From the NCBI GenBank assembly GCA_041601615.1, contig JBFIHX010000007.1:87805-151804 (forward strand): DNA of 64,000 nucleotides. Direction: 5' to 3'. This DNA is from Thermoplasmatota archaeon (GTDB lineage Archaea > Thermoplasmatota > E2 > JACPAO01 > JAHFTW01). The notes under the pieces were generated by a model. That model was not told the origin of the DNA and did no database searches. It saw only the letters and a program-made list of their open reading frames with translations. A program made the position numbers and the translations under genes. How positions within the stretch are numbered: the first letter of the stretch is position 1; every line of letters begins with the position of its first letter. This document shows, piece after piece, positions 279-37,092 of this stretch.

Positions 279-418
279 CCTAGCCCAGATCGACCATGCT
301 GATGGCCCCGGCGGCAGCGCGGCGTGGATCCATCGGGTGTTGCATTCCGGCTGCATCGCGTCGAGTTTACGGCTGTATCGAGGGTGCCTAAGTAGCGGGG
401 GCGTGCGACGAGGATTCG

Positions 419-1885: not shown

Positions 1886-1950
1886 TAAGCCGTAGGAGGA
1901 GACGCCGGGAGCGAGGACCGAACAAGTCCTGCTCCCGGCTTTTCACTCGA

Positions 1951-2045
1951 AACTACAACGGATGTTCGAGAATGAACGCTTCCGCCTTCAGCCGAGCAGC
2001 GGCATCCCATCCTTCTGCAAACATCGGACGCTGGAGCATTGCGGT
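1951..2045 (-). pseudogene. duplicated 3'-terminal fragment of the downstream BNR-repeat gene (about 31 codons plus stop)
   Basis: Minus-strand translation gives '...AMLQRPMFAEGWDAAARLKAEAFILEHPL*'. The intact gene tail at 2130..2224 is 'ATLQRPMFAKGWDPAARINAEAFILAHPL*'. DNA identity is about 75% over roughly 80 bp, and the similarity fades upstream. Confidence 0.5.
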
Positions 2046-2129
2046 GCACCACCACAGGGGCTCCGCCCCTTGTGTATACCTCGGGCGCGGCATTCTCTCC
2101 CTTCGGTCGAGAAGCCAAGCAGGGCGAAA

Positions 2130-3830
2130 TTACAGCGGATGCGCCAGAATGAACGCCTCTGCATTGATTCGCGCTGCAGGATCCCAGCCCTTGGCAAACA
2201 TCGGGCGCTGAAGCGTCGCGGTGTAGACATCGGCGTGGCCGTCGCGCGTATCGGGCCAGACAGGGTGGGCGGCTTGCCAACTGCTGTCGATGTCGTTGTA
2301 GTCGCCGATGAAGATGTTGCCATTCTGGTGGAAGCTCAACGCCGGGTCCCAGCCGCCGTCGTCGCTGTCGCGAACGCTGAATGGCTTGGCCCAGGTCTTG
2401 CCGCCGTCAAGCGAGTAGGTGTAGTGCTGCTCGAAGGTGGGGTGGCCGTCCACGAGGCGCGTGTTTTGGGTGTCCATCCAGCTGACATCGATGACGCCGC
2501 CGGGGCTGACGCTCACGGCGGGGAAGATGCTCCAGTTTTCGACGGTGCCATTGGTGACGTCCGTGGCGCTGATGCGGATGGGGTGGGTGAAGGAGTCGCC
2601 TTTGTCGTGGCTGGCGCTGAAGTAGATGCTGTTGGCTCCTTGTTCGGCGCATTCGGTGCGAGCGCTCCAGTTCTTGTCACCGCAGGCGTCGTTCCAGACG
2701 AAGTACATGGAGTCTGCAAAGGGCGAGTCGGGGTTGCGGTCGGTCGCCATGGCGGGGAAGCCAGTGCGGCGGTCGCGGGGCGACAGGCCAGGCATGCTCT
2801 GCGGGTTGGTGTCGGGGCCTTCGATGATTTCGCCCCAGGTTTCGCCGTAGTCCATGCTGCGCTTGAGGCGGATGCCGCCACTGTGCCAGGCCGCGTACAC
2901 CTCGCCGCCGGTGCCGACGTCCAAGAAGCTGCCTTGTCCGCTTTCCAAAAATTGCAGGGCAACGATTTCGGTGCAGAGGTAGGTGGCGCCGCCGTCGGTG
3001 CTGCGGCAGTATTGGTTGCCGGGCACGAAGAATGCGAGCCACATGACGTGGATGGTGCCGTCGGAGCTCGCAGCAATCCAGCCTTTGTCATGGAAGTTGA
3101 CGGGGAAGGTGCCTTCGAGCACGGGCGTGAAGGTGTGGAAGGAGTCGCCTCCGTCGCTGCTGACGGCGACGATTTGCGTTGCGCGGTTGAAGGCCCAGTC
3201 GTTGAGGGCTCCTTGGGGGCATTCTTCTTCGCAGGTCTTGCTGCCGGTGACGCGGTCGGCTTGGTACGCCATCAGCAAGTAGTACAGTTCGCCGTTTACG
3301 TCGAAGTAGGCGACGGGGTCGGTGGTGCACCAAAACTGGCTGGCGTAGTTGGCTTGGAAGGAGTTGCGGTCGGCCAGGAGGCGCCATGGGCTGCCGTCGA
3401 AGCTGCGGTCGGCAAATGTGGTGCGCCCGCCATCGTGGCTGACGTAGACGCCGTCCCAGACACATTCACCGGCATCGGTTGGGTAGTAGTCCTTGGCGCC
3501 GCCGACGATGTTGCGCGGATCGGCAGGATTCACAGCGATGGTGACTTCGTTGCCGCTGCGGCCTTCGTCAGGCGTCATCTCGAAGTCACACCGGCGCTCC
3601 ATGGCCTGCTGGTACGTCGTGGCTTTGGCGGGGTGCTCGACCAGGAAATGGCACACGGGCACCGGGATGGGCAAGCCCGCGTCGTCCACGGCGGTGAACT
3701 GAACGCCGGGCCCGTGGTTGAGGCTCGCGGGGCCAGCGCCCACGTCATCGTTGGGGGCAGGCGAGTCGCTGATGCACCCTGCGAGGGCGGTGATCAAAAA
3801 GAGAGGAGCCAGGAAGGCCTGGATACGCAT
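2130..3830 (-). CDS. BNR/Asp-box repeat lipoprotein (sialidase-like beta-propeller; secreted glycoside hydrolase-like)
   Basis: Start refined to M97 of the track ORF: 'MRIQAFLAPLFLITALAGC' is a signal peptide with lipobox. There are at least 6 SxDxGxT[WF] Asp-box motifs (SHDGGRTTF, SSDGGDSF, STDGGATY, SMDYGETW, SHDKGDSF, SLDGGKTW). Confidence 0.7.
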   Translation of the reverse strand: MRIQAFLAPLFLITALAGCISDSPAPNDDVGAGPASLNHGPGVQFTAVDDAGLPIPVPVCHFLVEHPAKATTYQQAMERRCDFEMTPDEGRSGNEVTIAVNPADPRNIVGGAKDYYPTDAGECVWDGVYVSHDGGRTTFADRSFDGSPWRLLADRNSFQANYASQFWCTTDPVAYFDVNGELYYLLMAYQADRVTGSKTCEEECPQGALNDWAFNRATQIVAVSSDGGDSFHTFTPVLEGTFPVNFHDKGWIAASSDGTIHVMWLAFFVPGNQYCRSTDGGATYLCTEIVALQFLESGQGSFLDVGTGGEVYAAWHSGGIRLKRSMDYGETWGEIIEGPDTNPQSMPGLSPRDRRTGFPAMATDRNPDSPFADSMYFVWNDACGDKNWSARTECAEQGANSIYFSASHDKGDSFTHPIRISATDVTNGTVENWSIFPAVSVSPGGVIDVSWMDTQNTRLVDGHPTFEQHYTYSLDGGKTWAKPFSVRDSDDGGWDPALSFHQNGNIFIGDYNDIDSSWQAAHPVWPDTRDGHADVYTATLQRPMFAKGWDPAARINAEAFILAHPL

Positions 3831-4821: not shown

Positions 4822-6837
4822 ATGACCCGAACCGGTCCCTGGACTCTCGTCCTGTTGTTCGTATTCGCCTCGACTGCCGTGATGGTCGATACTGCGCAGG
4901 CCCAATTGGAGCAAACGGGCTCCGTGGAAGGCATGACCTGCATCGATGGCTCGGATGGCTGCTGGAACGCCATCCCCAACGCCACCATTACTCTGGAGCG
5001 CACCGACGGTGTCGTACCTGCCTCCTACAAGACCACCAGCAACAGCGACGGCTGGTTTGGATTCAAGGAAGTCCCCGCGGGCACATACAAGGCAAGCGCA
5101 AGCCACACGGGCTTCTCTGTTGCATCCAGCTCCGTGCTCGTTAAGGCCGAAAACGCAAGCCGCATCGAGCTTCGCCTCGAACCCCAAAGCGTCACCCCCT
5201 CCGTAACTGTGGCAAACGAATCCGGCAGCGGCATCGACGCGACCGTCCGCTGGTGGTCCGACCGCACCTCAGGCTCCAGCAAAATCAGCGCCGGCAAAGG
5301 CAGCCTCTCCACCACGAGCGGCTACCACTCCTTCGAAATCAGCGCCCCCGGCTACGCCCAGACCAACAAGTGGTTCCTCGTAGACGGCACCGCAATCAGC
5401 TTCACCCTCGCCAAGGTGCCCCCGCAAACAGCCACCATCACCGGCGTCATCAAGGACCAAGACGGCACGCCTGTCTCTGGCGCCATTGTGGAAGTCTACC
5501 AATACGGCGGCTACGACTACGACTACGACTATGAGTACGAGGAAGCACCCCCTGAATCGTCCTCCTCCAGCCCAAGCCCAATTCGTGAACCCTACTACCC
5601 GCAATACGGCGGCAACAACCAAACCCGAACCGCCGCCGACGGCTCGTACCGCATCCACGTCTGGGCCGGTGAAGTCAATCTCAACATCCACAAGGCAGGC
5701 CACGCCCAACGCCACGACAACGTCGCGGTCAAAGACGGCCAGACCCTGAACCTCGACGTGAAACTGCTGAAGTTCCCCGAGAAAACCGCCCACATCGAAG
5801 GCCGCATCATCGGCAGCGACGGCAAGGCTCTGCGCTACGTCTCCCTGAACCTCTGGAGCCCTGCCTACGGCATTCGCGAATGCAGCATCCAAGCGGAAGA
5901 CGCCCAAAGCAAGCAAAGCGGAACCGGCAACAGTAGTAGCAGCGGCGGCAGCGGAAGCACCGGCAGCAGCACCGAACCGGCCATCGCCTACCCCGAACCA
6001 TACCCCTACTACGACCCCGGCTGCGTCATCACCATGTACGCCGACGGCACCTTCAATGGCGATGTGACCCCCGGCTACACCATCCTCGAAGCCTGGCACG
6101 ACCACTGGCGCACCTGCAACGAAACCAGCAGCAGCGACGGCAGCTTGAGCCGCACCTGCGGCCCCGAGTACCTCGGATACTCCCGCACACTCGACCTGCA
6201 AGCAGACCAAACCACCAAGATCGTCGTGCAGCTGGTTGCCCGCCCCGCCCCCGACGCCCGCGTCAGTGGCTACGTCGTCGACAAGGACACCAAGACGGCC
6301 ATCCCCGGCGTCCAAGTGCAATTCAGCAACGAAGAAAACTACGGCTGGGGCAACGCCGGCACCGACAAGGACGGCAGCTACAACGTCAAACTGCGCAACG
6401 GCTACCACCGAGTCCACGTCTGGGCCGAAGGCTACCTCCCCTGGCAAGGCACCCTGTTTGTCCCCGCCAAAGGCAACATCGACCTCGACATCGTGCTAAC
6501 CCCCGGCCAAGAAACCTACGGATACTGCTGCTACGCCTACGACGACATGGCCTACGCCGAATCCAGCGACGGATCCGTCAAAGCCTCCTCCTCGCCCCGG
6601 CCCGCAACGGCCCCGCCCATGGAGTCCAGCGCCGAAACATCTGAGTCCCGCAACACCAACAGCGGCGGCTCCGACGGCGAGACCGTGCAGGACCTCGGCG
6701 GCGGCCTCGGCCCCTACGACGCCAAGAAACGCGCAGCCCTGCAAGAGTCCAGCGACAACGGCGCTCCCGGCGCCGGCATCGCCCTGCTTGCCATGGCGCT
6801 GCTTGGTGCCCTGCTCATCGCCAGGCGACAACAGTAA
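4822..6837 (+). CDS. secreted surface protein with tandem carboxypeptidase-regulatory-like (CarbopepD_reg/transthyretin-like) domains and a PGF-CTERM-like tail
   Basis: Start refined to ATG 4822: 'MTRTGPWTLVLLFVFASTAVMVDTAQA'. Repeated 'xIxGxVxDxxGxPIxGAxV' beta-sandwich units occur throughout. C-terminus '...GAPGAGIALLAMALLGALLIARRQQ*'. The upstream part of the track ORF (4285..4821) has no signal peptide and is read as spurious. Confidence 0.7.
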   Translation: MTRTGPWTLVLLFVFASTAVMVDTAQAQLEQTGSVEGMTCIDGSDGCWNAIPNATITLERTDGVVPASYKTTSNSDGWFGFKEVPAGTYKASASHTGFSVASSSVLVKAENASRIELRLEPQSVTPSVTVANESGSGIDATVRWWSDRTSGSSKISAGKGSLSTTSGYHSFEISAPGYAQTNKWFLVDGTAISFTLAKVPPQTATITGVIKDQDGTPVSGAIVEVYQYGGYDYDYDYEYEEAPPESSSSSPSPIREPYYPQYGGNNQTRTAADGSYRIHVWAGEVNLNIHKAGHAQRHDNVAVKDGQTLNLDVKLLKFPEKTAHIEGRIIGSDGKALRYVSLNLWSPAYGIRECSIQAEDAQSKQSGTGNSSSSGGSGSTGSSTEPAIAYPEPYPYYDPGCVITMYADGTFNGDVTPGYTILEAWHDHWRTCNETSSSDGSLSRTCGPEYLGYSRTLDLQADQTTKIVVQLVARPAPDARVSGYVVDKDTKTAIPGVQVQFSNEENYGWGNAGTDKDGSYNVKLRNGYHRVHVWAEGYLPWQGTLFVPAKGNIDLDIVLTPGQETYGYCCYAYDDMAYAESSDGSVKASSSPRPATAPPMESSAETSESRNTNSGGSDGETVQDLGGGLGPYDAKKRAALQESSDNGAPGAGIALLAMALLGALLIARRQQ

Positions 6838-6863: not shown

Positions 6864-7340
6864 ATGGAGCTTTGGTTGCTTCGCCATGCCCACGCTCCAT
6901 GGACCTCCTCCATTCCCGACGCCGAGCGCCCCCTTGACGCACTAGGCATGCAACAAGCAGACGAAACGGGAGCCTGGATGCGCCAACAACGCCTCCGCCC
7001 CGACCACATCCTCGTCAGTCCCGCCGTGCGCACGCGCCAAACAGCCGAGAGGGTTCTCGGCGCCCAGGCACAAAGATGCGTTGTCGATCCTCGACTCTAC
7101 GAAGCACGACTCGACGACCTGCTTCGCGCCCTACAAGACATCCCCGCTGACGCCCAGCGCGTCCTCCTCGTCGGCCACAACCCCGGCATGGAGCAACTGG
7201 TGCGATACCTTGCGCCTCGTTCCTCCACCGATGAACCGGAACTGGACGTCCAACCCTGCACCCTGGTCCGGCTCCGCATCCACGGATTCACCAACAACGG
7301 TGGCAAAATCTTAGAGATCCATCGAACCGGAACCCCGTGA
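6864..7340 (+). CDS. sixA: phosphohistidine phosphatase SixA-like (histidine phosphatase superfamily)
   Basis: 'LWLLRHAHA' is the RHG catalytic motif at the N-terminus. '...LLVGHNPGMEQLV' gives the second His. At about 158 aa it has SixA size. Confidence 0.7.
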   Translation: MELWLLRHAHAPWTSSIPDAERPLDALGMQQADETGAWMRQQRLRPDHILVSPAVRTRQTAERVLGAQAQRCVVDPRLYEARLDDLLRALQDIPADAQRVLLVGHNPGMEQLVRYLAPRSSTDEPELDVQPCTLVRLRIHGFTNNGGKILEIHRTGTP

Positions 7341-8189
7341 CTCCGCCTCTCGAAGCGACGAAGCCACGCTGGCCAACGCACGAAGACCCGGCACCGTACG
7401 CGTTCCAAACCAAGTAAGCGCCTCACCGTCGATCACAAGCTTTCGCTCCTGCACCCCGGCCCGCCCGAGCCCCGCCGTATCGATTTGCTCCAATTTCTTG
7501 TCAAATGGATACGGCTCCGTAGGCAACAAAGTCCAAGCCGCACCCGACGCCGCGACCTCGGCCGCATCGACTTGGAAATACTTGGGTCCCTGATGGCGCC
7601 CAAATACATTGGCAAGCCCCACCGCCGCCAGCATCGCATGCGGATACGCCGAGCGGTCAAACGTCATCCAAGGATCATACCAAATCGGACAAAACACCGG
7701 CACCGCCAACTGATTGCGCGTCGGCCGCACCGCCTCCAGAGTCTCGCGAATCAACATGGCCGCCGCCAAGCCCGCATCCGGAACCCCACACCGAATCCCA
7801 AGCTCATCCAAAAACGTTGCAGCATCCTCCACCGAATCAATTTCTGAGTGCAAAACCTCCACGCCCGCCGCCCGCAGCGCCTCCACGAGCGCCAACGGAT
7901 TCTCATCCTTGTCCACCACCACAAGATCAGGTTCAAGCGCCAAAATTTTCTCCAACTTGGCATCCTTCGTGCCGCCCACAACAGGAATGGAATCGACCCA
8001 AGGAGCCGGCGCGATGCAAAACCGAGTCCGGCCCACGACGCGGTTGGCCAAACCCAAATCATGCAAGCTCTCCGTGTGGCTCGGAACCAGGGACACAATA
8101 CGCTGCGGGGGCTGCACAAGGGCGCGGAGGCGCACGGGATGGAAACGGTTGCGTCCGGCAAACGACCACACCCAACCCACCAATTTCAT
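7311..8189 (-). CDS. ABC-transporter substrate-binding protein (TroA/BtuF/FecB-like cluster A metal/siderophore/cobalamin-binding)
   Basis: 'RIVSLVPSHTESLHDLGL...VVG' and 'LEPDLVVV' are typical of the periplasmic-binding-protein type 2 fold. Confidence 0.6.
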   Translation of the reverse strand: MKLVGWVWSFAGRNRFHPVRLRALVQPPQRIVSLVPSHTESLHDLGLANRVVGRTRFCIAPAPWVDSIPVVGGTKDAKLEKILALEPDLVVVDKDENPLALVEALRAAGVEVLHSEIDSVEDAATFLDELGIRCGVPDAGLAAAMLIRETLEAVRPTRNQLAVPVFCPIWYDPWMTFDRSAYPHAMLAAVGLANVFGRHQGPKYFQVDAAEVAASGAAWTLLPTEPYPFDKKLEQIDTAGLGRAGVQERKLVIDGEALTWFGTRTVPGLRALASVASSLREAESRGSGSMDL

Positions 8190-8282
8190 TCATCGACCCT
8201 GACCACAACCGTATTCACCCGCCGCCAAGTGGATTCCTTCGTGGATGGGCCCGGCGCCGACGCGGCACCCTCAAAACCCAGC

Positions 8283-9557
8283 ATGGGCAAGCGCATCGTC
8301 GAGCTCGTGCTCGGCAAACCCAAAACGGAACGCAAACCGCGCCCGCACCCCTTTGCCCACGAATCAACAAGCGACGCCGAAAGCCACTACACGGCCAAAC
8401 AAGTGCTCGCATTCTGGGGCGGCATCGCCACCCTCATCGCCGTCAGCAGCCTGCTTCTGGCCGACCGCTTCAGCCCCCACTCAGCCGGCTGGTTCGGCGG
8501 CCACGGCGCAAGCGGCCCAAGCTTAGCCTGGGAATCCTGGACCCTCGTCCCCCTCTTTGCAGGACTCACACTCCTCGGCTTCGGCTTCGTCCACCAACCC
8601 TGGGCCAAACGCCTCACCCTCGTCGGCTGGGTGCTGTTTGGAACCTACTGGGGCCTCACCGCCACCGACCTCTTTGTCAAAGAAGACAGCGACTACGTCA
8701 ACTTCGTCTTCGCCGTCGTCGGCGTCTACTTCTTCACCTACCTCGCCTACCACCAATGGCTGGACCTCGCCCGCAAAAGCGACACCCACGCCCTGCACTT
8801 TCTCAACGTCACCGCATTCATCGCCGCAGGCACCTACTTTCTAATTGCCAAAATCACCTTCCTCCGCGTCTGGCTCATCCACATCGTCGGAAACCACACA
8901 AAATGGATGCTCGACCTCTTTGGCCAAGGCAGCAAACAAAACATCCAATTCATCGTAGACAAGACCGACAGCCAAGGCCCTGTGACCTTCTTCTATCCGC
9001 AATACTACTGCGACTGGCAATACCGAGGCGACGCCGTGGGCCGATACTGCCTCGAAAACGGCCGCCTCTCCGAAAGCACCGTCGTAGCCAACTCCGGCTT
9101 CCTCGGCAACCTATGGACCTGGACCCCCGAAGTCGGCATCGAATATGTCGTACCCGTCAGCATCATCCTCGCCTGCACCGCCATCCAAAGCATCATGCTC
9201 TTCGTCGGCCTCTTTGCCGGCACCAAAGCGAACTTCCAACGCAAACTCAAGGCGAGCCTCATCGTCGGCGCCATCATCTACGTCCTCAACCTCGTGCGCA
9301 ACACCGGCATCATCTGGTTCTACGGCCAAGGCCACGCCAGTTTCTGGATGATGCACAACGCCATCGGCAAAGGCGGCAGTCTGCTGGCCATGGTCGGCAT
9401 CGCCTTCGCCGTCTTCAAGTGGTTCCCGGAGTTTTTCCACAGCCTCGTCTCCGTGCTCGACCTGCCCGACCGCGACGGCCCCATCGAACGCGCCCTCAAA
9501 GTCGGCCGGCGCCGACCAGAAGCCGCAGCACCCGTCAAGTTTGCCGGCGAAGACTAG
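8283..9557 (+). CDS. artA: archaeosortase A-like polytopic membrane protein (exosortase/archaeosortase family candidate)
   Basis: Start refined to ATG 8283 (MGKRIVEL...). It has 8 or more TM helices and a TM Cys in 'SIILACTAIQS' (Cys298). An 'NLVR' Arg follows 41 residues later (Arg339); for comparison H. volcanii ArtA has Cys173/Arg214, recalled from memory. It lies immediately upstream of psd-pssA, the neighbourhood conserved for ArtA. One hydrophilic loop is unusually long. Confidence 0.5.
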   Translation: MGKRIVELVLGKPKTERKPRPHPFAHESTSDAESHYTAKQVLAFWGGIATLIAVSSLLLADRFSPHSAGWFGGHGASGPSLAWESWTLVPLFAGLTLLGFGFVHQPWAKRLTLVGWVLFGTYWGLTATDLFVKEDSDYVNFVFAVVGVYFFTYLAYHQWLDLARKSDTHALHFLNVTAFIAAGTYFLIAKITFLRVWLIHIVGNHTKWMLDLFGQGSKQNIQFIVDKTDSQGPVTFFYPQYYCDWQYRGDAVGRYCLENGRLSESTVVANSGFLGNLWTWTPEVGIEYVVPVSIILACTAIQSIMLFVGLFAGTKANFQRKLKASLIVGAIIYVLNLVRNTGIIWFYGQGHASFWMMHNAIGKGGSLLAMVGIAFAVFKWFPEFFHSLVSVLDLPDRDGPIERALKVGRRRPEAAAPVKFAGED

Positions 9558-9636
9558 ACGCGCCGCCCAGCGGCACGCGACACCACGCAACGCCTCGCGC
9601 CAGCACCCTTAGAAGACGCCCCGAAGTCGCCGCCCT

Positions 9637-10266
9637 GTGCTGAAGATCGCCCAAGGAGGCGCCAACTGGCTCGTCACCCCGCTCGGACTCGCCATCCTCA
9701 TGGCCGGACTATCCAGCTACGCCGCCATCCTACTGCCCCTAAGCATGGTCCCCTTCAGCCTCGCGCTCGGCTTCTGGTACTTCTTTCGCGACCCCGACCG
9801 ACGCATCGCCGAAGGCATCGCCTGCCCCGCCGACGGCAAAGTGGTCCGCATCGACACCATCGAAGACCCCGACCTCGGCACCGTCGACCGACTGAGCATT
9901 TTCATGCGCCCCAGCGACGTTCACGTCAACCGATTCCCCATCAACGGAAGCGTACGCAGCGTCGTCCACCGCCCCGGCGGCCACGTCCCCGCCTTCAACA
10001 AAGACAGCGACCGCAACGAACGCGTCACCACCTGGATGAAAACCGACCTCGGCGAGATCAAAATCCACCAAATCGCCGGCGCCGTCGCACGCCGCATCGT
10101 CCCCTACAGCCGAAACGGCGACCACGTCAAGAAAGGCGAAAAACTGGGCCTCATCCGCCTCGGCAGCCGCTGCGACCTACTCGTGCCCACAGGAAGCGTC
10201 ACCTGGACCGTGCAGCTCGGACAACGCGTATTCGCCGGCAGCACGACCGTGGGTGAAGTGGCGTGA
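9637..10266 (+). CDS. psd: archaetidylserine decarboxylase proenzyme (phosphatidylserine decarboxylase family)
   Basis: GTG start. It has a Psd-like fold with a C-terminal 'LIRLGSRCDL' Gly-Ser self-cleavage site (pyruvoyl precursor). The 4-nt GTGA overlap with the next gene indicates translational coupling. Confidence 0.75.
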   Translation: MLKIAQGGANWLVTPLGLAILMAGLSSYAAILLPLSMVPFSLALGFWYFFRDPDRRIAEGIACPADGKVVRIDTIEDPDLGTVDRLSIFMRPSDVHVNRFPINGSVRSVVHRPGGHVPAFNKDSDRNERVTTWMKTDLGEIKIHQIAGAVARRIVPYSRNGDHVKKGEKLGLIRLGSRCDLLVPTGSVTWTVQLGQRVFAGSTTVGEVA

Positions 10267-10964
10267 ACGCAACCCCAGCCCTCTGGCGCGACGTACGCGT
10301 AGCCGACCTTGCCACCCTCCTCAACGCCCTGCTCGGCCTCACCGCCATCCTGTTTGCCGCCACCGGCCGCCCCGTGCTCGCCGCCGAATTGGTCATGGCC
10401 GGCATCATCGTCGACGGCATCGACGGCGCCCTCGCCCGCATCGGCCTCGGCGGCGGCCCCCTCGGCGGCATCCTCGACACCCTCGCCGACGTCGTCACCT
10501 TCGGCGTCGCCCCCGCCGTCGTGCTCGTCACCGCCACCACCTTCCACCCCCTGCTTGCCACCGCCGCCGGCCTCTATCTCTGCGGCGTCCTCCTACGGCT
10601 AGCACGATTCGAAGCCATGCGCACCACCGGCCCATCCGACACCCGCCACTTCATGGGACTCAGCAGCCCCGGCGCCGGCCTCCTCGTCGTCACCGCCGTC
10701 CTCCTCGACGCCCACCCCTTCGCCACCGTCGCCGTCGCATTGCTTGCCACCACCCTCATGCTGACCCGATTCCCCATGCCCAAGCTTCGCGGCAGCCTCG
10801 GCATCGTGGCGGTGCTGCTCATCCTGGCAGTCCTCGCGGGCCACGCTCGCACGTGGCAACCCTGGGCCGCCGCCCTCATGCTCGCCTTCCTAGCCGTGTA
10901 TGTCCTAGCCGGACCCTTATACGTCAAGGCCCGCCTGCGCCGACCCTCCCCGGAGACTCCCTGA
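10263..10964 (+). CDS. pssA: CDP-alcohol phosphatidyltransferase (archaetidylserine synthase)
   Basis: 'DGIDGALARIGLGGGPLGGILDTLADVVTFGVAP' fits the D-G-x2-A-R...G-x3-D-x3-D signature. The protein is all-TM. Confidence 0.8.
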   Translation: MNATPALWRDVRVADLATLLNALLGLTAILFAATGRPVLAAELVMAGIIVDGIDGALARIGLGGGPLGGILDTLADVVTFGVAPAVVLVTATTFHPLLATAAGLYLCGVLLRLARFEAMRTTGPSDTRHFMGLSSPGAGLLVVTAVLLDAHPFATVAVALLATTLMLTRFPMPKLRGSLGIVAVLLILAVLAGHARTWQPWAAALMLAFLAVYVLAGPLYVKARLRRPSPETP

Positions 10965-11776
10965 TGGCCCGCAAGCCCCAAAAAAAACAGAAGACCTCCA
11001 TCCGCACCGCCGCCGGCACCGCCCAGCGGTCCTTTAGCGAACGACTCAAAGCACTCCGCGCCGACCCATTGCGCGTCCTGCCCGACTGCCCCAACGGCGA
11101 ACCCAAGGCCATCGCCAAAATCCACGCAGGCCTCGACAAAATCGTCACCGGCAAAGTCGGATTCCTCCTCAAGCGCGACAAAGGCATCGTCGGCGCCGTC
11201 CTCTCCAGCATCGAACTGGCCGACCAAGAAGCATTCCCGCGCCTCATCGACCACAAAGTCGGCGGCACACGACGCTTCTTCATCCAGCGCGGCCACGTGC
11301 CCCGCTCCTGCCTACTCGGTGTCCAGAACCACGACGACGCCCGCACACTCCTGATGGCCTACCGGCCGCTTGCCAAGTCCGACAAACTGCACTTCTTTGC
11401 CGACCCCGGCATCACCTGCACCGGCACCGACGCCCAACCCCCACAAGCCTGGATCGACGCCCTCGCAAACCGCGCCGGCTTCAAACTCGAAACCACGGCA
11501 GAAGGCTGGACCTGCGGCCACGAAGACAAAGGCCAGGTGCGACTCGGATTCGGCGACTTGCGCGGCATCCACATCTGCGGCGCCTGTGGCAAAAAAACCG
11601 GCAACCTGCACTCCCTGATTCGCACCTGCTACGCCGGGCCCAAAGAACGGCAACCCGTCGAAGTGTCCGTCGTCGTGGAAGGCGTGGAAGGCGCCGCCCA
11701 CCCGGACAAAATCGCAGCCTACCGAGGCGGCGTCATCGACGAAAAGGCGCTCGTGGACAGTGTCACGCTCACCTAG
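10964..11776 (+). CDS. hypothetical protein with C-terminal Cys cluster (possible Zn ribbon)
   Basis: The ATG overlaps the pssA stop (TGATG). There is no recognisable domain. C-terminal 'HICGACGKK...TCYAG'. It is co-directional with artA-psd-pssA. Confidence 0.5.
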   Translation: MARKPQKKQKTSIRTAAGTAQRSFSERLKALRADPLRVLPDCPNGEPKAIAKIHAGLDKIVTGKVGFLLKRDKGIVGAVLSSIELADQEAFPRLIDHKVGGTRRFFIQRGHVPRSCLLGVQNHDDARTLLMAYRPLAKSDKLHFFADPGITCTGTDAQPPQAWIDALANRAGFKLETTAEGWTCGHEDKGQVRLGFGDLRGIHICGACGKKTGNLHSLIRTCYAGPKERQPVEVSVVVEGVEGAAHPDKIAAYRGGVIDEKALVDSVTLT

Positions 11777-12402
11777 AACCCAAGCCCGCCAAGGAAAAAG
11801 CCGACCTGCCCCGCTGCCTGCCGCTGCGCACCGCGCCAGAAATGGTCCGTGGGCACCGACGCGAACCGAGCGTCCGGGATGGCTTCGGCAAGATCCATGC
11901 CGTGCTGTACCGGAACGTCCACGTCCCGAAGGCCATGCAAAACGAGCGTCGGGCACGGGACGCGGGGAGCAAGTGCAATCGCTTCCTCGCTCGCTGGCAA
12001 TTCCCGCATCTCCTTCAACACCGCGTTGGGCTCGAAGCCGTACTTCTTGCCAAACACCGCCCACTGAGGCCGGAATTGCTTGTGCGCCTCCTCAGCGCGG
12101 CGGGCCCAACTGGCGACGGGCGACAAGAGAATCAGCGCGTCCACGGCGACATTGCCGAGGGCGACCTGACGAAGCAGCAAATTCGCACCGAAGCTGTAGC
12201 CCAAACCGATGCGGGGGCCGGCTGGCAAGGATTCGGCCGTGGATTGGATGGCATCCTCGCAGGCAGAGAACAGGAAGGAACCCGGGCGAGATTCAAGGCC
12301 TGGGTACGGGACCAGGGCGCGGGAATGGTCTGGGAGAAGCGCCTCGGCAAGCACGTCCATGAACGGGGAGGAGAAAGAGGGACATACGAGGGCGGAGGGC
12401 AC
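11773..12402 (-). CDS. alpha/beta-hydrolase fold protein
   Basis: Nucleophile elbow 'GYSFGA' (GxSxG); downstream 'LVLHGLRDVDVP...D' gives the catalytic Asp, and His follows in 'PTDHF'. Confidence 0.6.
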   Translation of the reverse strand: MPSALVCPSFSSPFMDVLAEALLPDHSRALVPYPGLESRPGSFLFSACEDAIQSTAESLPAGPRIGLGYSFGANLLLRQVALGNVAVDALILLSPVASWARRAEEAHKQFRPQWAVFGKKYGFEPNAVLKEMRELPASEEAIALAPRVPCPTLVLHGLRDVDVPVQHGMDLAEAIPDARFASVPTDHFWRGAQRQAAGQVGFFLGGLGF

Positions 12403-12534
12403 GGATCAGGCCAGATTGGGGGCAGGGTTCAAGGTAGCGGAGGGGCGTCGCGGCAAAATGATGAGGCACCGAGCAAGAGGCGGGCATCCAGCTCGCGGCC
12501 GTTCTTGGTGGCTTGCCATGCTTCGTTGGCAAGC

Positions 12535-12933
12535 TTAGCGAAGTCGGACATGCGCCTTGCCTCCGTCCTTTGGCGGATTCACTCGATATCGATTCGCACC
12601 CAGTTTTTCGACGTAACCGGTCTCCATCCAGGAACGCCAACGGAGTCCAGCTAGGTCAGAAAGCTCAACATCGCGTTTTCTGCGAAGGGCTTGGATTTGG
12701 TTTTGCTCCAAATGGCGGCCAATCACGAGGGGGGCATCCGTGTCCGTGATGCAATAGACGCCACGCGAGACGCGCTCAATGACGCCGGCTTGCTTGAGGC
12801 GATTCAAGGTGCTGTCGACATTGCGAATGCCCCAGACTTCCCTTGCCTCCGCCGCAGTGAACGGAGTCGTTCCGAATGCCCGACGCAAGGCTTCCGATTT
12901 CAGGCAAGCATCCACATATGGAAGGTTGTACAT
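12535..12933 (-). CDS. AbiEi_4-type winged-helix protein (antitoxin-like transcriptional regulator N-terminal domain)
   Basis: 'FTAAEAREVWGI...STLNRLKQAGVIERVSRGVYCI' matches the AbiEi N-terminal consensus (F-T-...-G-I-...-S-x-L-S-R-L-V-K-x-G-...-R-V-A-R-G-V-Y). Confidence 0.55.
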   Translation of the reverse strand: MYNLPYVDACLKSEALRRAFGTTPFTAAEAREVWGIRNVDSTLNRLKQAGVIERVSRGVYCITDTDAPLVIGRHLEQNQIQALRRKRDVELSDLAGLRWRSWMETGYVEKLGANRYRVNPPKDGGKAHVRLR

Positions 12934-12950
12934 GAAGGTATCTTGGATTT

Positions 12951-12962
12951 GGGGGGGGGGGG
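12951..12962. repeat. G12 (C12 on the coding strand) homopolymeric tract 18-30 nt upstream of the AbiEi_4-like gene start
   Basis: 'gatttggggggggggggaatg' is seen directly; the minus-strand ATG is at 12933. Confidence 0.8.
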
Positions 12963-13107
12963 AATGCTCTGGCGGGGGTTCGGCTGCGAAGGCGGATTGC
13001 GGAGTTGGGCTGAGAGGAGGGTTGGTGTCTAAACGACTGAGGTAAGCCGCCTCGACCGGAGGGAGAGGCGGCTTGAGCGATTTGTTAGCACGAGCAGAAC
13101 TACAACC

Positions 13108-13545
13108 CTATGCTGGCCTGAAGTCTTCGTAGATCTGGTCACTGAGGTCCAATCCAAGTCGCTTGTGCATGGGGCCGTAGGCCGTGTATCGTTCTGGGCG
13201 AACGTGCCGCAACTCATGGCCAGCATCTGTGACTACCCCCAATTGCTCAATGTTGGCATCCTTGTGGAGGTAAAATCGAACGCGGTCGGCTCCGTGCTTC
13301 GTCATCCAGGCCGCAAGCGGTGCCAGGTCATCGCGGGGGCAGACGATGACTGCCATGAACCAAGAGTCTGGAACGTGGGCGGGTAGGGCGTCAAGGAATT
13401 CGTGTTTCATCCAGCGGTCAATGTGTTGGACCTCGTCGGTTGCCATCTCCAGGCAATTTGGTTCCTGGCTGCTTACGATGAGGGCCAATGTGGAATGGGA
13501 ATGGGCCGCAACGACGCGAGTCCAGTCCTCAAGGCGTCCTTTCAT
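13108..13545 (-). CDS. hypothetical protein (145 aa)
   Basis: The ORF overlaps the upstream wHTH gene by 4 nt and has no recognisable motif. Local GC is lower than the flanks. Confidence 0.4.
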   Translation of the reverse strand: MKGRLEDWTRVVAAHSHSTLALIVSSQEPNCLEMATDEVQHIDRWMKHEFLDALPAHVPDSWFMAVIVCPRDDLAPLAAWMTKHGADRVRFYLHKDANIEQLGVVTDAGHELRHVRPERYTAYGPMHKRLGLDLSDQIYEDFRPA

Positions 13546-13916
13546 GCGTGAACAAGGCCGCGTTGGGTGGATTCGTGCCGGTATGCATCAGGAAGTATTT
13601 GCTGGCTGACGAGCAGGACTCTTGCGCCGAGGGCAGAGAGTTCAATTCTCTGCGTTTTCAAGTCAGGCATCAAGCCCAAGCGGATCAAGCCCTTCTGGTC
13701 GAGGGCACGAATTGCTTTCGTGACCGTGGCGGGGGCAGCGTCGCCTTGAATTTTTTTTGCCAATTCTGGCCGACTAAGAGCGTGCCCCATGAGGGCCTCT
13801 AGGGCCTCAAGTTGCCGTCGTGCACCTCGGCCACGAATCTCCATGGCAAGCTGATACTCATGGTCCTGGTCAAACTCATCGGGCCACATAGTTACCCATG
13901 GGTAAGCATAGGACAT
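13542..13916 (-). CDS. MarR-like winged-helix DNA-binding protein
   Basis: 'LSRPELAKKIQGDAAPATVTKAIRALDQKGLIRL' shows the helix-turn-helix plus wing pattern. It is translationally coupled to the 145-aa ORF. Confidence 0.45.
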   Translation of the reverse strand: MSYAYPWVTMWPDEFDQDHEYQLAMEIRGRGARRQLEALEALMGHALSRPELAKKIQGDAAPATVTKAIRALDQKGLIRLGLMPDLKTQRIELSALGARVLLVSQQILPDAYRHESTQRGLVHA

Positions 13917-14038
13917 AAGGGTGTCGGCAGACCCTGCACTTCCGCGCGTGCTAACGGTCGAGGTCAGCCGCTCCGAACGAAGTGAGGAGTCGGCTGGAGC
14001 GATTTGTTATCTTGCGCGGCTCGGCCTAACTAGGGCTT

Positions 14039-15814
14039 CTAGAATCCGAAGCCAGCCCAATGCCCCCTTCTGTACTCGCCCAGACCTTCGATGGCGGCGT
14101 TGACTCGCTCGAGCTTGCCGCCGAAAAGGTTAGTTTCGAGCGGCCCCCAGTTGGTGCCCCGCGCTTCGATGTCACTTTCCATGATTTTTAGAGCGGAATC
14201 ACCATGATGGTTGCTCAGCCATGGTCCGGCCGCATAGTGTGGCCGACGTTTCTCTTGGATGGCGTGGTCGGCCCGATGAAGGTTAACAATCGCGTCGAAA
14301 TTATCGAATGCCTGGGCTGCATCGCCCTCGGACCCAAGCACGTCTTTTACACACTCCACCACAGCCCCTTTGAACCGCTCTCGGAGCCAGAAAAGGTTGC
14401 GCTTCGCATCTGGGATGCCTTCCTTGATTTTGCCACAAATCCGGTTTGGCTCGAACGCGAAGGGTGCCCAATCCCGGTCGCCCGGCAACCCCATGTCGTT
14501 CAATTGCAGCAAAGCCGTAACCGATTCCCATTCGTCGCGGGCAATCATCGAGGTTCCGGCCGCCCACCACGCCATGGCCGCCGGAAGCACCATCGCTTCC
14601 TCAAGTGCGCTGTTCCACGGGCTCACGGTTCGGTTGTATGAAGACGCGTTTCGGAATGGCCGCTCAAGGTGCGGGGTGCTATTGGGGACCCAGAACGCGG
14701 TCGTACCGCTGATCGCAGCGAAGATGCGCCCCTCGCCGAGAAGCGCGTGAAAGCGCGCCTCCAAGTCGACGTCCCCGCCCGAGTGGATGGGGAAAGCATC
14801 GGTGTGGAGACGTTCTTGGATATGTTTTGCTTCGCGCATCAATGAATCATGGAGGCGCATGAAAGGGGGCCCGGCTTCTATTTGCTGCTTAGTTGCTTCG
14901 ACTGCAAGCCCGATGGACAGGGGAGTGCCCTCGCCCAAGCGCGCCAGGCTGGCTACGGAATCAGATAAACCCCCAAAAAATTCGTCGGCCGGGCCCACCG
15001 GCGCGTATGGAATCTGCTGTCGAGTGGAAATCTCCTTGATGGCGTCGCTCGCTTCGCCTCGGCCTGCCCACAACGACTCGAACCGACGTGATTGCCGTGC
15101 CTCAATCAAGGACAATAACGCCGTGTCGTGTTCGGCACTCCATCCTGATATGAGTAAACCATGCTCTTCAAGAATGCGGGCGACGAAATTTGCAAGGTCG
15201 CCATGATACTCGGCCAACTCATCCTGGGTGTTAAGGAATCCAGGGTCTTTGTAGTCCCCGTTGACCTTTACTACAACCACGCCGGATTGGCTGACCGGCA
15301 CGGCGCCTGCTGCCTGCGATGGATTGCTAATTACAACGGGTTCAATGCCCTGCTCAACCAACGCGGCTTCCATTAGCCTGTCAAAATTCGTAGTCAAAAT
15401 TACCTTGAGGTAACCCCCCGCTGCCAATTCTGCAATGGCTCGATGGGCCGCCGTTGGCTCGGGAATCTTGCCGTCCGGTTCAAAATAGCCGGCCAGTAAA
15501 GCGACGCGCTGTTCCTTCGAATTGGCTAGATCTTGGATAATCTCCGAGTACTGGGCCGGCTTGCCAAACGTTTCCTGGAACCATTGGAGCGGGGTGGCGG
15601 GGTCTTGAGCTTGGGCTGCTGCGATACGCCGTGCAAGATCCTCGACAACCTCGTACCCAGTTGGAATCTTTGCGGCGCGGCTTGCACCTGACCCCAGGAG
15701 CACCGCGATGCTCCCTGGGCGGTCATGCATGGCCATTGCAATGCGTACGGCCGGGTTCATATGTTGCCATCCGCGCCCCCGTTTGAAGCGTTGCCTGCCT
15801 TTGGCAGATTGCAA
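14039..15814 (-). CDS. SIR2-like (SIR2_2) domain protein with uncharacterised ~350-aa C-terminal domain; candidate NAD-dependent defense effector
   Basis: N-terminal 'IAVLLGSGASRAAKIPTGYEVV' is the GxGxS Rossmann motif that opens SIR2_2 domains. 'LKVILTTNFDRLMEAAL' corresponds to the TTNYD motif of ThsA-type sirtuins. The start could alternatively be M19 (15760). Confidence 0.7.
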   Translation of the reverse strand: MQSAKGRQRFKRGRGWQHMNPAVRIAMAMHDRPGSIAVLLGSGASRAAKIPTGYEVVEDLARRIAAAQAQDPATPLQWFQETFGKPAQYSEIIQDLANSKEQRVALLAGYFEPDGKIPEPTAAHRAIAELAAGGYLKVILTTNFDRLMEAALVEQGIEPVVISNPSQAAGAVPVSQSGVVVVKVNGDYKDPGFLNTQDELAEYHGDLANFVARILEEHGLLISGWSAEHDTALLSLIEARQSRRFESLWAGRGEASDAIKEISTRQQIPYAPVGPADEFFGGLSDSVASLARLGEGTPLSIGLAVEATKQQIEAGPPFMRLHDSLMREAKHIQERLHTDAFPIHSGGDVDLEARFHALLGEGRIFAAISGTTAFWVPNSTPHLERPFRNASSYNRTVSPWNSALEEAMVLPAAMAWWAAGTSMIARDEWESVTALLQLNDMGLPGDRDWAPFAFEPNRICGKIKEGIPDAKRNLFWLRERFKGAVVECVKDVLGSEGDAAQAFDNFDAIVNLHRADHAIQEKRRPHYAAGPWLSNHHGDSALKIMESDIEARGTNWGPLETNLFGGKLERVNAAIEGLGEYRRGHWAGFGF

Positions 15815-18898: not shown

Positions 18899-20392
18899 TC
18901 AGTGGCGGCGACGGGCAACCACGACGGCGGCGCCGAGTCCTGCGAGAATGCCGAGGGCTCCGGGGCCGGGGCTGTCCTTCTTTACGTCGGGGTCCGCGGT
19001 GGTGGGCGCGGCGGTGTCGTTGGCGGTGACTCCGCCGACGTTTACCTGCAATTCCCAGGTGCGGTCCTTTTGTTGGGAGCCTTCGAGCCAGCTGATGGTG
19101 CCGTTGACTTGGTAGATGCCGTGCGGGACGTCGGTGCCGGGGCGGACGGTGAATTCCTGTTGTTGGTCTTCGCCGGGGCCGATGGCTTGGTGTTCGCGCC
19201 AGGCGACGCTCCATGCGCCGGGGGCTGGGGCTTGGGTGCTTTGGACGATGGGGTCGTCGTAGCTTGTGAACGGGTGGCCGGTGGCGCCACCGAGGTTGCG
19301 CATGGCGAACTGGAACACGGCGGCTTCCCCGGGAGAGACTGTCTTGGTTTGTTCGTCTACGCTGATTTGGAGGCGCGGTACGTCGAGCGTAATGGCGCCG
19401 CCGCCGGCGCTGCCGATGTGGATTTCTTTCTGGGCTAGGTTGCCTGCAAGGTCGCGGGCTTCCACGCGCACCACGTCGCTGTCTAGGATGGGGCGACCTG
19501 AGAGGGCCCAGGCTTCGCCGAGGGGGCCGCAGGTCTGGGGAGGTTGTTGGCTGCATTCGTTCGCGACGGTGCTGCCGGTGCCGTAGGGGCCGTAGCCGGG
19601 CAGCAAGTCGTCGTCCCAGATGCGCCCTTCAAAGGGAGTCATGTTCTGAACGGCGCCGTCCTTTTGGTGCACGAGTTTGCCGTTGATGAACACCCGCAGT
19701 TCGGAGAGGGGTTCGGCAAATTCGAGGGTGAGGGTGGAGCCGGCGGGGGCGGCGTTCTTGCTGATGTCCAGTTCACCGTCGCCAGGAAGCATAATGGCCC
19801 AGGGCTCCGTCTTGTCCTGGGCTTGGTGTTCTGCGGTGGGGTACGGTTCGTCGTTGCAATAACTGGGCGCCGGTTCGGTGCAGTTGTCGACGACGGCGAG
19901 GGTCCAAGCGCGTGCGATTTCGTTGTCGTTGGCGTCGTAGGCGTGGACTGCGGCCATGTAGTCGCCATCGGGGACGAGGGTCGTTTGGAGGTTGATGAAG
20001 AAGCCGTCCGAGGGGTCAATGTCGGCGCGGTAGTTGATGATGTAGGGGCCGCTGGGAATCCAGGGCTCCATGGCGCAGACTTCTGTTTCGCTGGCCATCT
20101 GGGACACGGGGCTGAAGCTGAAGCCGAAGGTGGCAATTTGGTCGGCGCCGTCGCCGATGGCTTGGAACTGCGCAAAGAGCTGTCCTTGCGCGTGCACTTT
20201 GCCGTCGCCCTTCTGTTTGAGTCCGGGGTTCAGGAAATCTAGAAGGATGTCGCCGCAGCAGTCGAAGTCGCTGTTGGCTTGACATTCGGTTCCCTGCTGG
20301 TCGAGTTCTGCGCCGGCAAACGCAGCGGGCACGGAGACTAGCAGGAGCAGGAAGCAAAGGCCGGCCTGGACCGGACGCATACACCACATCAT
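18899..20392 (-). CDS. secreted surface protein with PGF-CTERM-like tail
   Basis: Start refined to M92: 'MMWCMRPVQAGLCFLLLLVSVPAAFAG'. C-terminus '...SPGPGALGILAGLGAAVVVARRRH*'. There is no catalytic motif. Confidence 0.6.
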   Translation of the reverse strand: MMWCMRPVQAGLCFLLLLVSVPAAFAGAELDQQGTECQANSDFDCCGDILLDFLNPGLKQKGDGKVHAQGQLFAQFQAIGDGADQIATFGFSFSPVSQMASETEVCAMEPWIPSGPYIINYRADIDPSDGFFINLQTTLVPDGDYMAAVHAYDANDNEIARAWTLAVVDNCTEPAPSYCNDEPYPTAEHQAQDKTEPWAIMLPGDGELDISKNAAPAGSTLTLEFAEPLSELRVFINGKLVHQKDGAVQNMTPFEGRIWDDDLLPGYGPYGTGSTVANECSQQPPQTCGPLGEAWALSGRPILDSDVVRVEARDLAGNLAQKEIHIGSAGGGAITLDVPRLQISVDEQTKTVSPGEAAVFQFAMRNLGGATGHPFTSYDDPIVQSTQAPAPGAWSVAWREHQAIGPGEDQQQEFTVRPGTDVPHGIYQVNGTISWLEGSQQKDRTWELQVNVGGVTANDTAAPTTADPDVKKDSPGPGALGILAGLGAAVVVARRRH

Positions 20393-20501
20393 GGCATCGA
20401 GGCCGCTTTGCGGGCAAAAGGGTTGTTGTCGGTTTTGGAAGTTGGAGGCTTTTGAGAAATCCCCAGTCAACGTCAAACGAGGGGGTTTCATTTTGGGGGA
20501 T

Positions 20502-20921
20502 ATGCTCCGTTCTTTGGGCGTTCTTTGCATGCTGGCGGTCGTCACTCTGGCCGTACCGACCTCCGCAGCTTCGCTGGAAAAAGACACCGATGGCCTAGGC
20601 GTGTTCCCGGTGGATTGTTTGGCCGGGTACGCAGGTTGGCAAATCCGCGATACGGGATACTTCATCGGCGACCCGATGAACCGCTTTGGCTACTACCAAC
20701 AAGTCCTGGTGTTCAACAACTTCATCCTGGTCTTCTGTGCCTTGTATGAAGTCAACTGTGCCCAGGTGTACGCCTCCGATCTCCTGATGGACTTTGGCTC
20801 CAACCTCTCCAACGGTGCCTACTTTGCGGCGGTTGCGTCGACCATTCCAAACTCCTTGGACTACGCAAGTTGCGCAACGGGCGTGCCGATGCCGACACCC
20901 ACGGTGAACATCGCACAGTAA
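20502..20921 (+). CDS. small secreted hypothetical protein
   Basis: Internal ATG 20502 gives 'MLRSLGVLCMLAVVTLAVPTSAAS' as a signal peptide. The protein is about 139 aa and Cys-containing. Confidence 0.35.
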   Translation: MLRSLGVLCMLAVVTLAVPTSAASLEKDTDGLGVFPVDCLAGYAGWQIRDTGYFIGDPMNRFGYYQQVLVFNNFILVFCALYEVNCAQVYASDLLMDFGSNLSNGAYFAAVASTIPNSLDYASCATGVPMPTPTVNIAQ

Positions 20922-29160: not shown

Positions 29161-29164
29161 AAAG

Positions 29165-33044: not shown

Positions 33045-33117
33045 GCCTCGGTGGCTTAGTTGGTAGAGCAGTTGATTCGTAATCAACAGGTCGGGGGTTC
33101 AAATCCCCCCCGGGGCT
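33045..33117 (+). tRNA. tRNA-Thr (anticodon CGU)
   Basis: Manual fold: acceptor GCCTCGG/CCGGGGC with one G-U, and T-arm GGGGG-TTCAAAT-CCCCC. The anticodon stem is GTTGA/TCAAC with loop TTCGTAA, giving CGT. Discriminator is T and no CCA is encoded. Confidence 0.85.
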
Positions 33118-36339: not shown

Positions 36340-37092
36340 ATGACCCAAAAAACAAGCTCCCACGCTCCGGCCCCACCCCGAACACCGGCCCACGGCCACG
36401 GCACACGCACCACGCGGACCGCCGCGCTCCTCGTCTTTGCCGCCATCGCCTTTGCACCCACCATTCCCGCCCAACCAGACACCTTGGACCCAACCTGCTT
36501 CGAACCAGGCATGAACGTTCAATGCAACGAATTTGGCTCCATCATGATGGAAAACCAACGCGACATCCGAGGCGAACCCATCCTCATCAACGTCACCGCC
36601 ATCCTGCACACCGTCCACCTGGACGCCGACGCACGCTGGATCATGTTCAGCGTCCGCCACAGCCCCGAAGACGGCAGCAGCCCCATCTCCATCGCACCCC
36701 TCAGCTTCACCAGCCCCTTCGGCGACATCATCACCTCCAGCGTCGACCAAGCAACACCCAGCGAAGTCAATTTCTGGGTCCATGTCATCGACGTACCCCT
36801 CGACACCCCGACAACCATTGAAGTCCTCGTCGGTGCAAGCGAACGCGGCGCCTTCCGCTTAGAAGCCCTGGTCATGGCCTTCGACCGAGCCTACGAGCCC
36901 ATCAAAGGCGCCGACGGAACGGACCAATCCTTGTTCTCGTTCACCCTCCTGGGTGTCAACGGCGAGACCAAGCGGACCGCCACCGCAAGCACCGGCGAGG
37001 ACAAGTTCCGCGCCCCCGGCCCCGGAGCCGCCCTCACCTTCGGCGCCCTCCTTGCCATCGCCGCACTCGTCACACGGAGGCGCCTCGGATGA
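36340..37092 (+). CDS. secreted protein with PGF-CTERM-like tail
   Basis: Start at ATG 36340 (alternative 36295). The signal region is '...TRTAALLVFAAIAFAPTIPAQ'. C-terminus '...FRAPGPGAALTFGALLAIAALVTRRRLG*'. The upstream 465 nt of the track ORF is low-complexity and treated as non-coding. Confidence 0.6.
   Translation: MTQKTSSHAPAPPRTPAHGHGTRTTRTAALLVFAAIAFAPTIPAQPDTLDPTCFEPGMNVQCNEFGSIMMENQRDIRGEPILINVTAILHTVHLDADARWIMFSVRHSPEDGSSPISIAPLSFTSPFGDIITSSVDQATPSEVNFWVHVIDVPLDTPTTIEVLVGASERGAFRLEALVMAFDRAYEPIKGADGTDQSLFSFTLLGVNGETKRTATASTGEDKFRAPGPGAALTFGALLAIAALVTRRRLG

Follow-up and report, generated by a model that had tools for sequence, protein, structure and literature searches.

The closest described relatives of the locus considered here are the archaeosortase A (ArtA) systems of Haloferax volcanii and Methanosarcina. 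In H. volcanii both HvPssA and HvPssD are required for ArtA-dependent processing and lipidation, the homologues being unclustered there, while in Methanosarcina pssD is flanked by artA and pssA (Abdul-Halim et al. 2020, PMC7157517). The authors propose that archaetidylethanolamine, through its amine, resolves the thioester intermediate of ArtA (PMC7157517). We analysed a 64,000-nucleotide stretch of a Thermoplasmatota archaeon (GenBank assembly GCA_041601615.1, contig JBFIHX010000007.1, positions 87,805 to 151,804; hereafter the window), in which artA, psd and a pssA-like gene stand in the Methanosarcina order and are followed by a fourth gene, here called g4. Since that order is published for Methanosarcina, the trio is the known system in another phylum, and the neighbourhood that a sequence-only reading of the window had named thus finds its counterpart in the published ArtA/PssA/PssD link (PMC7157517). 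What is new here is that the sorting signal is a variant and that a conserved orphan gene stands fourth; the artA-psd-pssA core is already known biology. For Thermoplasmatota or Marine Group II, our literature search on archaeosortase or PGF-CTERM gave no relevant result. The route by which archaeosortase substrates come by their lipid has so far been described at the level of models, and we know of no cytoplasmic partner of an archaeosortase. To our knowledge the Thermoplasmatota also offer no tractable models, and their membrane-lipid chemistry is disputed.

The likeness to the published system lies in the Cys...Arg pair of ArtA at a spacing of 41 residues, in the artA-psd-pssA order and in the tripartite substrate tail of motif, transmembrane helix and basic cluster. 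The differences are the phylum, an ArtA some 120-140 residues longer, a PG[VLAP]G motif in place of PGF, a fourth translationally coupled gene after pssA, and psd and pssA-like products that score under the sorting-system-specific hidden Markov model (HMM) cutoffs. Two further systems, rhombosortase/GlyGly-CTERM and exosortase/PEP-CTERM, resemble it in that a membrane enzyme removes a C-terminal signal. Rhombosortase attaches a glycerophosphoethanolamine-containing moiety (as cited in PMC7157517). It is a non-homologous enzyme, and exosortase is homologous but bacterial, with different signals. We know of no psd-pssA operon partner described for either system.

The four genes run in one direction, as follows.

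8283..9557, + strand: artA, ATG at 8283 and TAG at 9555-9557, 424 residues
9637..10266, + strand: psd, start GTG at 9637, 209 residues
10263..10964, + strand: gene for a pssA-like CDP-alcohol phosphatidyltransferase, 233 residues
10964..11776, + strand: g4, last gene of the operon, stop TAG at 11774-11776, 270 residues

The junctions are tight. A spacer of 79 nucleotides without an AT-rich tract separates artA from psd, GTGA at 10263-10266 is common to the end of psd and the start of pssA, and the A of the pssA stop TGA (10962-10964) is the first base of the g4 start ATG (10964-10966), giving a TGATG overlap. The coordinates and junctions therefore agree with what had first been read from the letters, namely a co-directional unit of four open reading frames with short spacing and GTGA and ATG/TGA overlaps. 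Public gene calls start artA at a GTG 14 codons earlier (8241; 438 residues), and the g4 stop overlaps that of a convergent alpha/beta-hydrolase gene. A codon-position GC profile of ~0.6/0.45/0.8 in all four marks them as real genes of a genome with 63% GC. An Rfam search of the window returned a tRNA at 33045-33117 alone, with no RNA element within the operon.

The first gene is, on its sequence, an archaeosortase A. Its product scores 127.8 bits against TIGR04125 (archaeosortase A; cutoff 75) and 60.3 bits against the exosortase/archaeosortase signature TIGR04178 (cutoff 23), other archaeosortase subtypes (ArtE, ArtH and others) falling far under their HMM cutoffs, and several homologues carry the source name 'archaeosortase A (PGF-CTERM-specific)'. 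The archaeosortase-like assignment of the sequence-only reading thus passed its HMM test, and the residue pattern on which it was built is present, a transmembrane cysteine in 'ACTAIQS' with an arginine in 'NLVR' 41 residues on:

9174..9176, + strand: codon of ArtA Cys298, the catalytic-cysteine candidate in VSIILACTAIQS ('ACTAIQS')
9297..9299, + strand: codon of ArtA Arg339, in 'NLVR', 41 residues after Cys298

Neither residue varies across the window ArtA and 13 distinct orthologs. Their spacing equals that of Cys173 and Arg214 in H. volcanii ArtA, the match being made through spacing and HMM coverage, and those two residues are experimentally critical (PMC9263693). Hydropathy indicates at least seven hydrophobic segments. 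Lengths of 410-570 residues are typical among Thermoplasmatota, and relative to the 271-position model the window protein has two additions, a conserved cytoplasmic N-extension of ~40 residues and a loop insertion of ~75 residues. The N-extension (residues 1-45) has its invariant positions within 'RPHPFAHE..SDAE', and the loop (residues ~215-290) holds two conserved cysteines, C243 and C256. It is possible that the N-extension serves as a docking site for a cytoplasmic partner.

The next two genes encode, at family level, predicted head-group enzymes of lipid synthesis. Psd exceeds both PF02666 (138 bits, cutoff 22) and NF003685 (192 against 183), and its 'LGSR' at residues 174-177 of 209 sits where self-cleavage is expected, at a Gly-Ser near the C-terminus. 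The pssA-like protein exceeds PF01066 (38.4 bits, cutoff 22), shows the motif DG-x2-AR-x8-G-x3-D-x3-D at residues 54-76, and finds its best NCBIfam matches among archaetidylserine synthases. The identities proposed for the pair accordingly stand for psd by HMM and for pssA by Pfam family and motif, but not for pssA at the equivalog level. Because the equivalog cutoffs lie above its scores, we infer serine as the acceptor from the best-scoring models and the neighbouring psd.

The four-gene order recurs. A locus scan with one genome per GTDB species gave 19 loci, 18 of them in metagenome-assembled genomes titled Thermoplasmatota or Thermoplasmata and one in a record titled an uncultured Halobacteriales archaeon. 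Together with loci found via individual proteins and two more (L035 and L036) reached independently via ArtA homologues, both of which carry psd-pssA-g4, this makes about 21 distinct genomes, and since the order recurs across them it is not due to chance. The distance from pssA to g4 is -14 to +44 nucleotides (20 loci), with pssA directly upstream wherever upstream sequence exists and psd directly upstream of pssA in the g4-linked loci. By comparison artA is found in 19 loci, co-directional and 11 to 3449 nucleotides upstream of psd. As the artA distance varies while the pssA-g4 spacing is tight, the invariant unit is psd-pssA-g4, with artA a looser neighbour. No gene recurs in the artA-psd gaps, the inserts being unrelated to one another, and at one locus (L031) no artA was found within 10 kb of psd-pssA-g4. 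Insertions are known on both sides of the block, and g4 is never parted from pssA in the linked clade. A distant Thermoplasmata metagenome-assembled genome (L037, 7001-8502) has a short ArtA of 306 residues that overlaps the psd start, with pssA and g4 not adjacent, so the artA-psd pairing either predates the four-gene unit or is more widely distributed. As a conserved operon partner of psd-pssA within its clade, g4 is therefore well attested by the ~21 related genomes.

The g4 product itself is an orphan. It has no Pfam, NCBIfam or PDB-sequence match, 23 relatives tested are equally blank in Pfam and NCBIfam, and PDB sequence-profile searches with g4-family alignments found nothing. AlphaFold models of the 270-residue g4 and of a 512-residue relative are confident (mean predicted local distance difference test, pLDDT, 89.5 and 89.3), and Foldseek against PDB and BFVD at E <= 0.001 returned no match for either. 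The fourth protein had been called uncharacterised from its letters, and the searches for family and fold agree; likeness to known proteins is generic, consisting of a zinc-ribbon-like element of the CxH...CxxC type and a basic N-tail. Among 5.8 billion proteins, a word-indexed search gave only 21 close relatives, all from Thermoplasmatota metagenome-assembled genomes and unnamed or called 'hypothetical protein', and when 1.84 billion cluster representatives were searched exhaustively by profile, 179 family members emerged. Most of these are 480-530 residues long, so that g4 is the N-domain-only form of a two-domain archaeal family of ~500 residues. The missing C-domain is acidic (isoelectric point about 5), all-helical, ~215 residues long and ends in '...SGSGE/GSTE'; tblastn and a C-domain HMM across the window detected no separate copy nearby. 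That g4 might be a spurious open reading frame of high-GC DNA was rejected on its conserved orthologs, its coding-type codon-position GC (0.66/0.46/0.79) and its confident fold. An apparent domain fusion in protein P0153 was likewise discarded, its N-terminal half resembling out-of-frame high-GC sequence.

Several features of g4 bear on what it might do:

10964..11023, + strand: Lys/Arg-rich N-terminal tail of g4, MARKPQKKQKTSIRTAAGTA, local net charge +5.5
11324-11326, + strand: codon of g4 Gln121, conserved in 94% of 172 family sequences
11417..11419, + strand: codon of g4 Cys152 ('ITCTG'), conserved in 91% of 172 family sequences
11513..11587, + strand: g4 C184-x-H186...C205-x-x-C208, each ligand in 80-83% of the family

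The protein is basic (isoelectric point 9.5, net charge +12; 9.1-10.4 for the N-domain in long forms), and with no transmembrane segment and a maximum 19-residue hydropathy of 1.0 it is predicted to be soluble. Its N-tail is predicted to be disordered (pLDDT 53-67) yet is nearly invariant in sequence (TSIRTAAG), with T11, I13, R14, T15, A17 and G18 unchanged in 19 clade members. Conserved family-wide, in g4 numbering, are P35, P40, Q121, C152, P160, C184, H186, C205, C208, Y253 and G256, and C152 is the sole cysteine retained across the linked clade (39/39). In the AlphaFold model both knuckles of the CxH...CxxC set come after beta-hairpins, which makes a zinc ribbon likely, and we regard the set as probably a zinc-ribbon-like metal site. 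The cysteine cluster that had been noted from 'HICGACGKK' (residues 203-211) and 'TCYAG' (residues 221-225) is thus present in g4, but it is not the conserved core, and its candidacy as the functional core was rejected, the full ligand set being missing in 13 of the 39 linked-clade members.

Comparison of 172 family sequences, 39 from the linked clade and 133 from elsewhere, points to reductive evolution. Short forms make up 23 of the 39 but only 4 of the 133. The ligand losses in a third of the clade likewise compare with a loss of one or more of the four ligands in 22 of 133 sequences elsewhere, all four being kept in the other 111. On a neighbour-joining tree the short (263-270 residues) and long (469-508 residues) forms are interleaved; the window g4 and L013, for instance, are short, and their sister L014 is long. 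This interleaving implies that the C-domain was lost repeatedly and independently within one clade. We read the decay of g4 as a changed selective constraint after it joined the psd-pssA operon, the best indirect argument, though no proof, for a functional tie.

If the locus is a lipid-anchoring system, its substrates should carry suitable C-terminal tails. Four PG-type tails had been claimed for the window, with Pro or Ala in place of Phe. Three hold, and the probable fourth (~45141-45962, 'IPVFPGVFAG') belongs to another class. The three are the only window proteins with PG[A/P]G tails (APGAG, SPGPG and APGPG in the order below), and share a layout of (S/A)PG[A/P]G, ~17-20 hydrophobic residues and RR(R):

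4822..6837, + strand: surface protein and putative ArtA substrate with three CarboxypepD_reg domains (PF13620, 133 bits)
18899..20665, - strand: second putative substrate, tail DSPGPGALGILAGLGAAVVVARRRH, true start uncertain and probably near 20380
36340..37092, + strand: third putative substrate, tail RAPGPGAALTFGALLAIAALVTRRRLG, start approximate, coding-like GC profile from ~36400

The protein at 4822..6837 has a signal-peptide-like start, MTRTGPWTLVLLFVFASTAVMV, at ATG 4822 and ends in GAPGAG, a hydrophobic helix and RRQQ. Its orthologs, of the form 'GGLGPYD...(S/A)PGxG-TM-RRR' (TM, transmembrane helix), lie upstream of the periplasmic-binding-protein and artA pair in at least 11 loci (L006, L013, L019-21, L024, L026, L028, L029, L035 and L036); because this tail-bearing protein is syntenic with artA, substrate, sortase and lipid enzymes would form one conserved neighbourhood. 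In L001 and L036 the position syntenic with 18899..20665, on the far side of the POR genes, is occupied by NPCBM_assoc-like proteins that bear such tails. About 25 tails of related loci give the consensus (D/G)(S/A)-P-G-[VLAP]-G, transmembrane helix and RRR, with occasional SP[VIML]P[VL], and the window protein at 419-1885 likewise has SPVLPLP in place of PGxG. Phe stands at the motif position in none of the three window tails and in one relative's tail only (APGPF, L006). The tails resemble PGF-CTERM (TIGR04126) in the Pro-Gly, the Gly one residue on, the helix of ~17-20 residues, the Arg cluster and their place on large secreted surface proteins, and differ in having Val, Leu, Ala or Pro at the Phe position and, in some of the clade, SP[VIML]P[VL] without the Gly. 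The variant signal retains the Pro-Gly and next Gly of PGFG and swaps only the Phe.

The best explanation of the locus, and one of which we are confident, is a lipid-anchoring system of archaeosortase A whose sorting signal is a variant. For the fuller reading, in which g4 was recruited into the psd-pssA operon of this Thermoplasmatota lipidation system, decayed there and possibly acts as an accessory, we think the balance favourable without being strong. Following the H. volcanii model, secreted proteins would carry the C-terminal (S/A)-P-G-x-G, membrane helix and Arg cluster, and ArtA would cut them through a Cys298 acyl-enzyme intermediate, the new C-terminus being moved onto an ethanolamine lipid at its amine. 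Synthesis of this lipid would take two steps, the PssA-like enzyme joining a CDP-lipid and serine into a serine lipid, which Psd would then decarboxylate. The fourth gene would share a transcript with pssA, probably with translational coupling between the two, and would come from an otherwise free-standing two-domain family that was recruited into the operon and afterwards shed its acidic C-domain and zinc site repeatedly. Its product may dock at the cytoplasmic membrane face through its basic surface and conserved N-tail. A part for g4 in anchoring is something we infer from operon structure, which makes it a candidate extra component. That it is a cytoplasmic-face accessory, whether adaptor or regulator, of the head-group pathway through which PssA and Psd feed ArtA is a tentative proposal that falls clearly short of even chances; we prefer it among possible roles because of the strict coupled position, the basic surface and the clade-specific relaxation of other parts. 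More specifically, and unlikely as it stands, g4 could be a basic adaptor that binds PssA/Psd, possibly also the ArtA N-extension or the anionic serine lipid, and channels the ethanolamine lipid to ArtA.

A number of results weigh against this reading, and the alternatives they suggest concern g4, the lipid genes and the tails. The main rival takes g4 for a housekeeping nucleic-acid-binding protein that is co-transcribed behind pssA and has no part in lipids or anchoring, which we consider rather doubtful. A basic protein with a Lys/Arg-rich tail and a CxH...CxxC ribbon suits nucleic-acid binding equally well. Moreover, at five distant g4-family loci, in other Thermoplasmata and one Altiarchaeales bin, the gene encodes a protein of 512-536 residues and stands apart from psd, pssA and artA, so that the family occurs in lineages without a visible link to them. 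There it adjoins a convergent Trm5/TYW2 gene (three loci) or CBS, aminoacyl-tRNA synthetase (TyrRS/TrpRS-type, ProRS), primase small subunit or UbiA-family genes. The Trm5 genes, however, are convergent rather than operonic, linked-clade g4 always accompanies pssA despite insertions on either side of psd-pssA-g4, and the zinc site and C-domain decay only in the linked clade, where a housekeeping function would be expected to retain both. Of the suggestion that g4 might be a new component of the anchoring pathway, the conserved partnership with psd-pssA in the clade therefore stands, but the family is wider than the pathway, its five distant loci are unlinked, and its linkage to artA is loose.

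The lipid genes may, alternatively, simply be housekeeping head-group enzymes, psd-pssA(-g4) being a general ethanolamine/serine-lipid operon whose adjacency to artA is inherited gene order; this we hold to be unlikely. For both enzymes the general PSD/PssA models outscore the sorting-system ones, psd reaching 161.7 against 240 on NF038088 and the pssA-like protein 71.3 against 200 on NF038086, and the latter stays below every equivalog cutoff (TIGR04217, 108.6 against 200; NF038087, 101.7 against 240; TIGR00473, 96.5 against 107). In at least five lineages unrelated genes part artA from psd, artA is more than 10 kb away in L031, and conserved adjacency is weak evidence because the whole region (POR, CBS, RNase HII) is syntenic in the clade. 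Against this, artA-psd adjacency is also found in the distant L037 and in Methanosarcina (PMC7157517), so the pairing recurs across phyla. Moreover, ArtA processing in H. volcanii depends on homologues that are unclustered there, so a housekeeping role and anchor supply do not exclude each other. As for the enzyme, the equivalent of H. volcanii R253 did not map in ArtA, F378/K379 lying ~39-40 residues past R339 by spacing only. Least probable, to our minds improbable, is that the (S/A)PGxG tails are ordinary membrane anchors or another enzyme's signal and not ArtA substrates at all. The tails on their own scored 9.2, 11.0 (18899..20665) and no hit on TIGR04126 (cutoff 24.5), with 8.0, no hit and at best 19.5 bits for three relatives, while generic anchor models such as MYXO-CTERM gave the window tails higher scores of 22-23 bits; a second tail class in the same window, described below, makes more than one sorting system likely. 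The relaxed PGF motif first suggested from the letters is consequently right as to the Phe position, but the window tails fail the PGF-CTERM model at 11 bits or less. The tripartite layout argues for ArtA substrates all the same, as do the P-G and following G conserved in ~25 related-genome tails, the conservation of one tail-bearing protein beside artA, and a weak C-terminal alignment with known PGF-anchored proteins (TIGR04281, TIGR04216, NF041431), and no second sortase was found in the window.

Other features of the window lie around the operon. The gene divergent from artA is the partner of artA in most related artA-carrying loci:

7311..8189, - strand: TroA-like periplasmic-binding-protein homologue (NF038402, 123.5 bits; PF01497)

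Its product has no obvious signal peptide and no C-terminal tail. On the other side, a lower-GC tract (58-59%) at 11773-15814 separates g4 from the POR genes and, besides two unknown open reading frames, holds the following:

11773-12402, - strand: alpha/beta hydrolase
12535-12933, - strand: AbiEi_4 antitoxin-like regulator
14039-15814, - strand: SIR2_2-domain protein, 591 residues

Because the POR genes directly follow g4 in L001 and L036, this tract has the look of an insertion, perhaps an accessory or defence-like island. GC is lower still (52-53% against ~63%) at 28001-30000 and 46001-48000. Strand asymmetry is very strong throughout, with C-rich and A-rich coding strands and a GC skew to -0.39 over 36-44 kb, and the high GC creates many long spurious antisense or out-of-frame reading frames (for example 7817-9643 and 10253-11776).

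The second tail class consists of a Cys, 3-9 residues, IPVFP, a helix of ~20 residues with 'AY', and RR[QKR], on small secreted proteins with signal-peptide-like starts:

~43139-43786, + strand: small secreted protein with an IPVFP tail
~45141-45962, + strand: small secreted protein with an IPVFP tail
~52223-52663, + strand: small secreted protein with an IPVFP tail, weak coding evidence

No NCBIfam sorting-signal model matches these tails, and a search for a second sortase near their genes turned up glycosyltransferases and expansin-like proteins only. They are possibly an undescribed sorting signal. Expansin EXLX1-like cellulose-binding domains, unusual for an archaeon, occur on two large proteins of 819 and 888 residues (52804-55263 and 55826-58492, both on the - strand).

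The artA-psd-pssA cluster now extends to the Thermoplasmatota. The ArtA signal would appear to tolerate loss of its name-giving Phe, in which case HMM-based substrate catalogues will miss such proteins. The fourth gene adds a small, soluble candidate component with a confident predicted structure and without known relatives. Were g4 unrelated to anchoring, it would still represent a conserved archaeal orphan family with an apparently new fold, and the adaptor reading, if true, would add a new fold as well as a further, new step to the anchoring of archaeal surface proteins.

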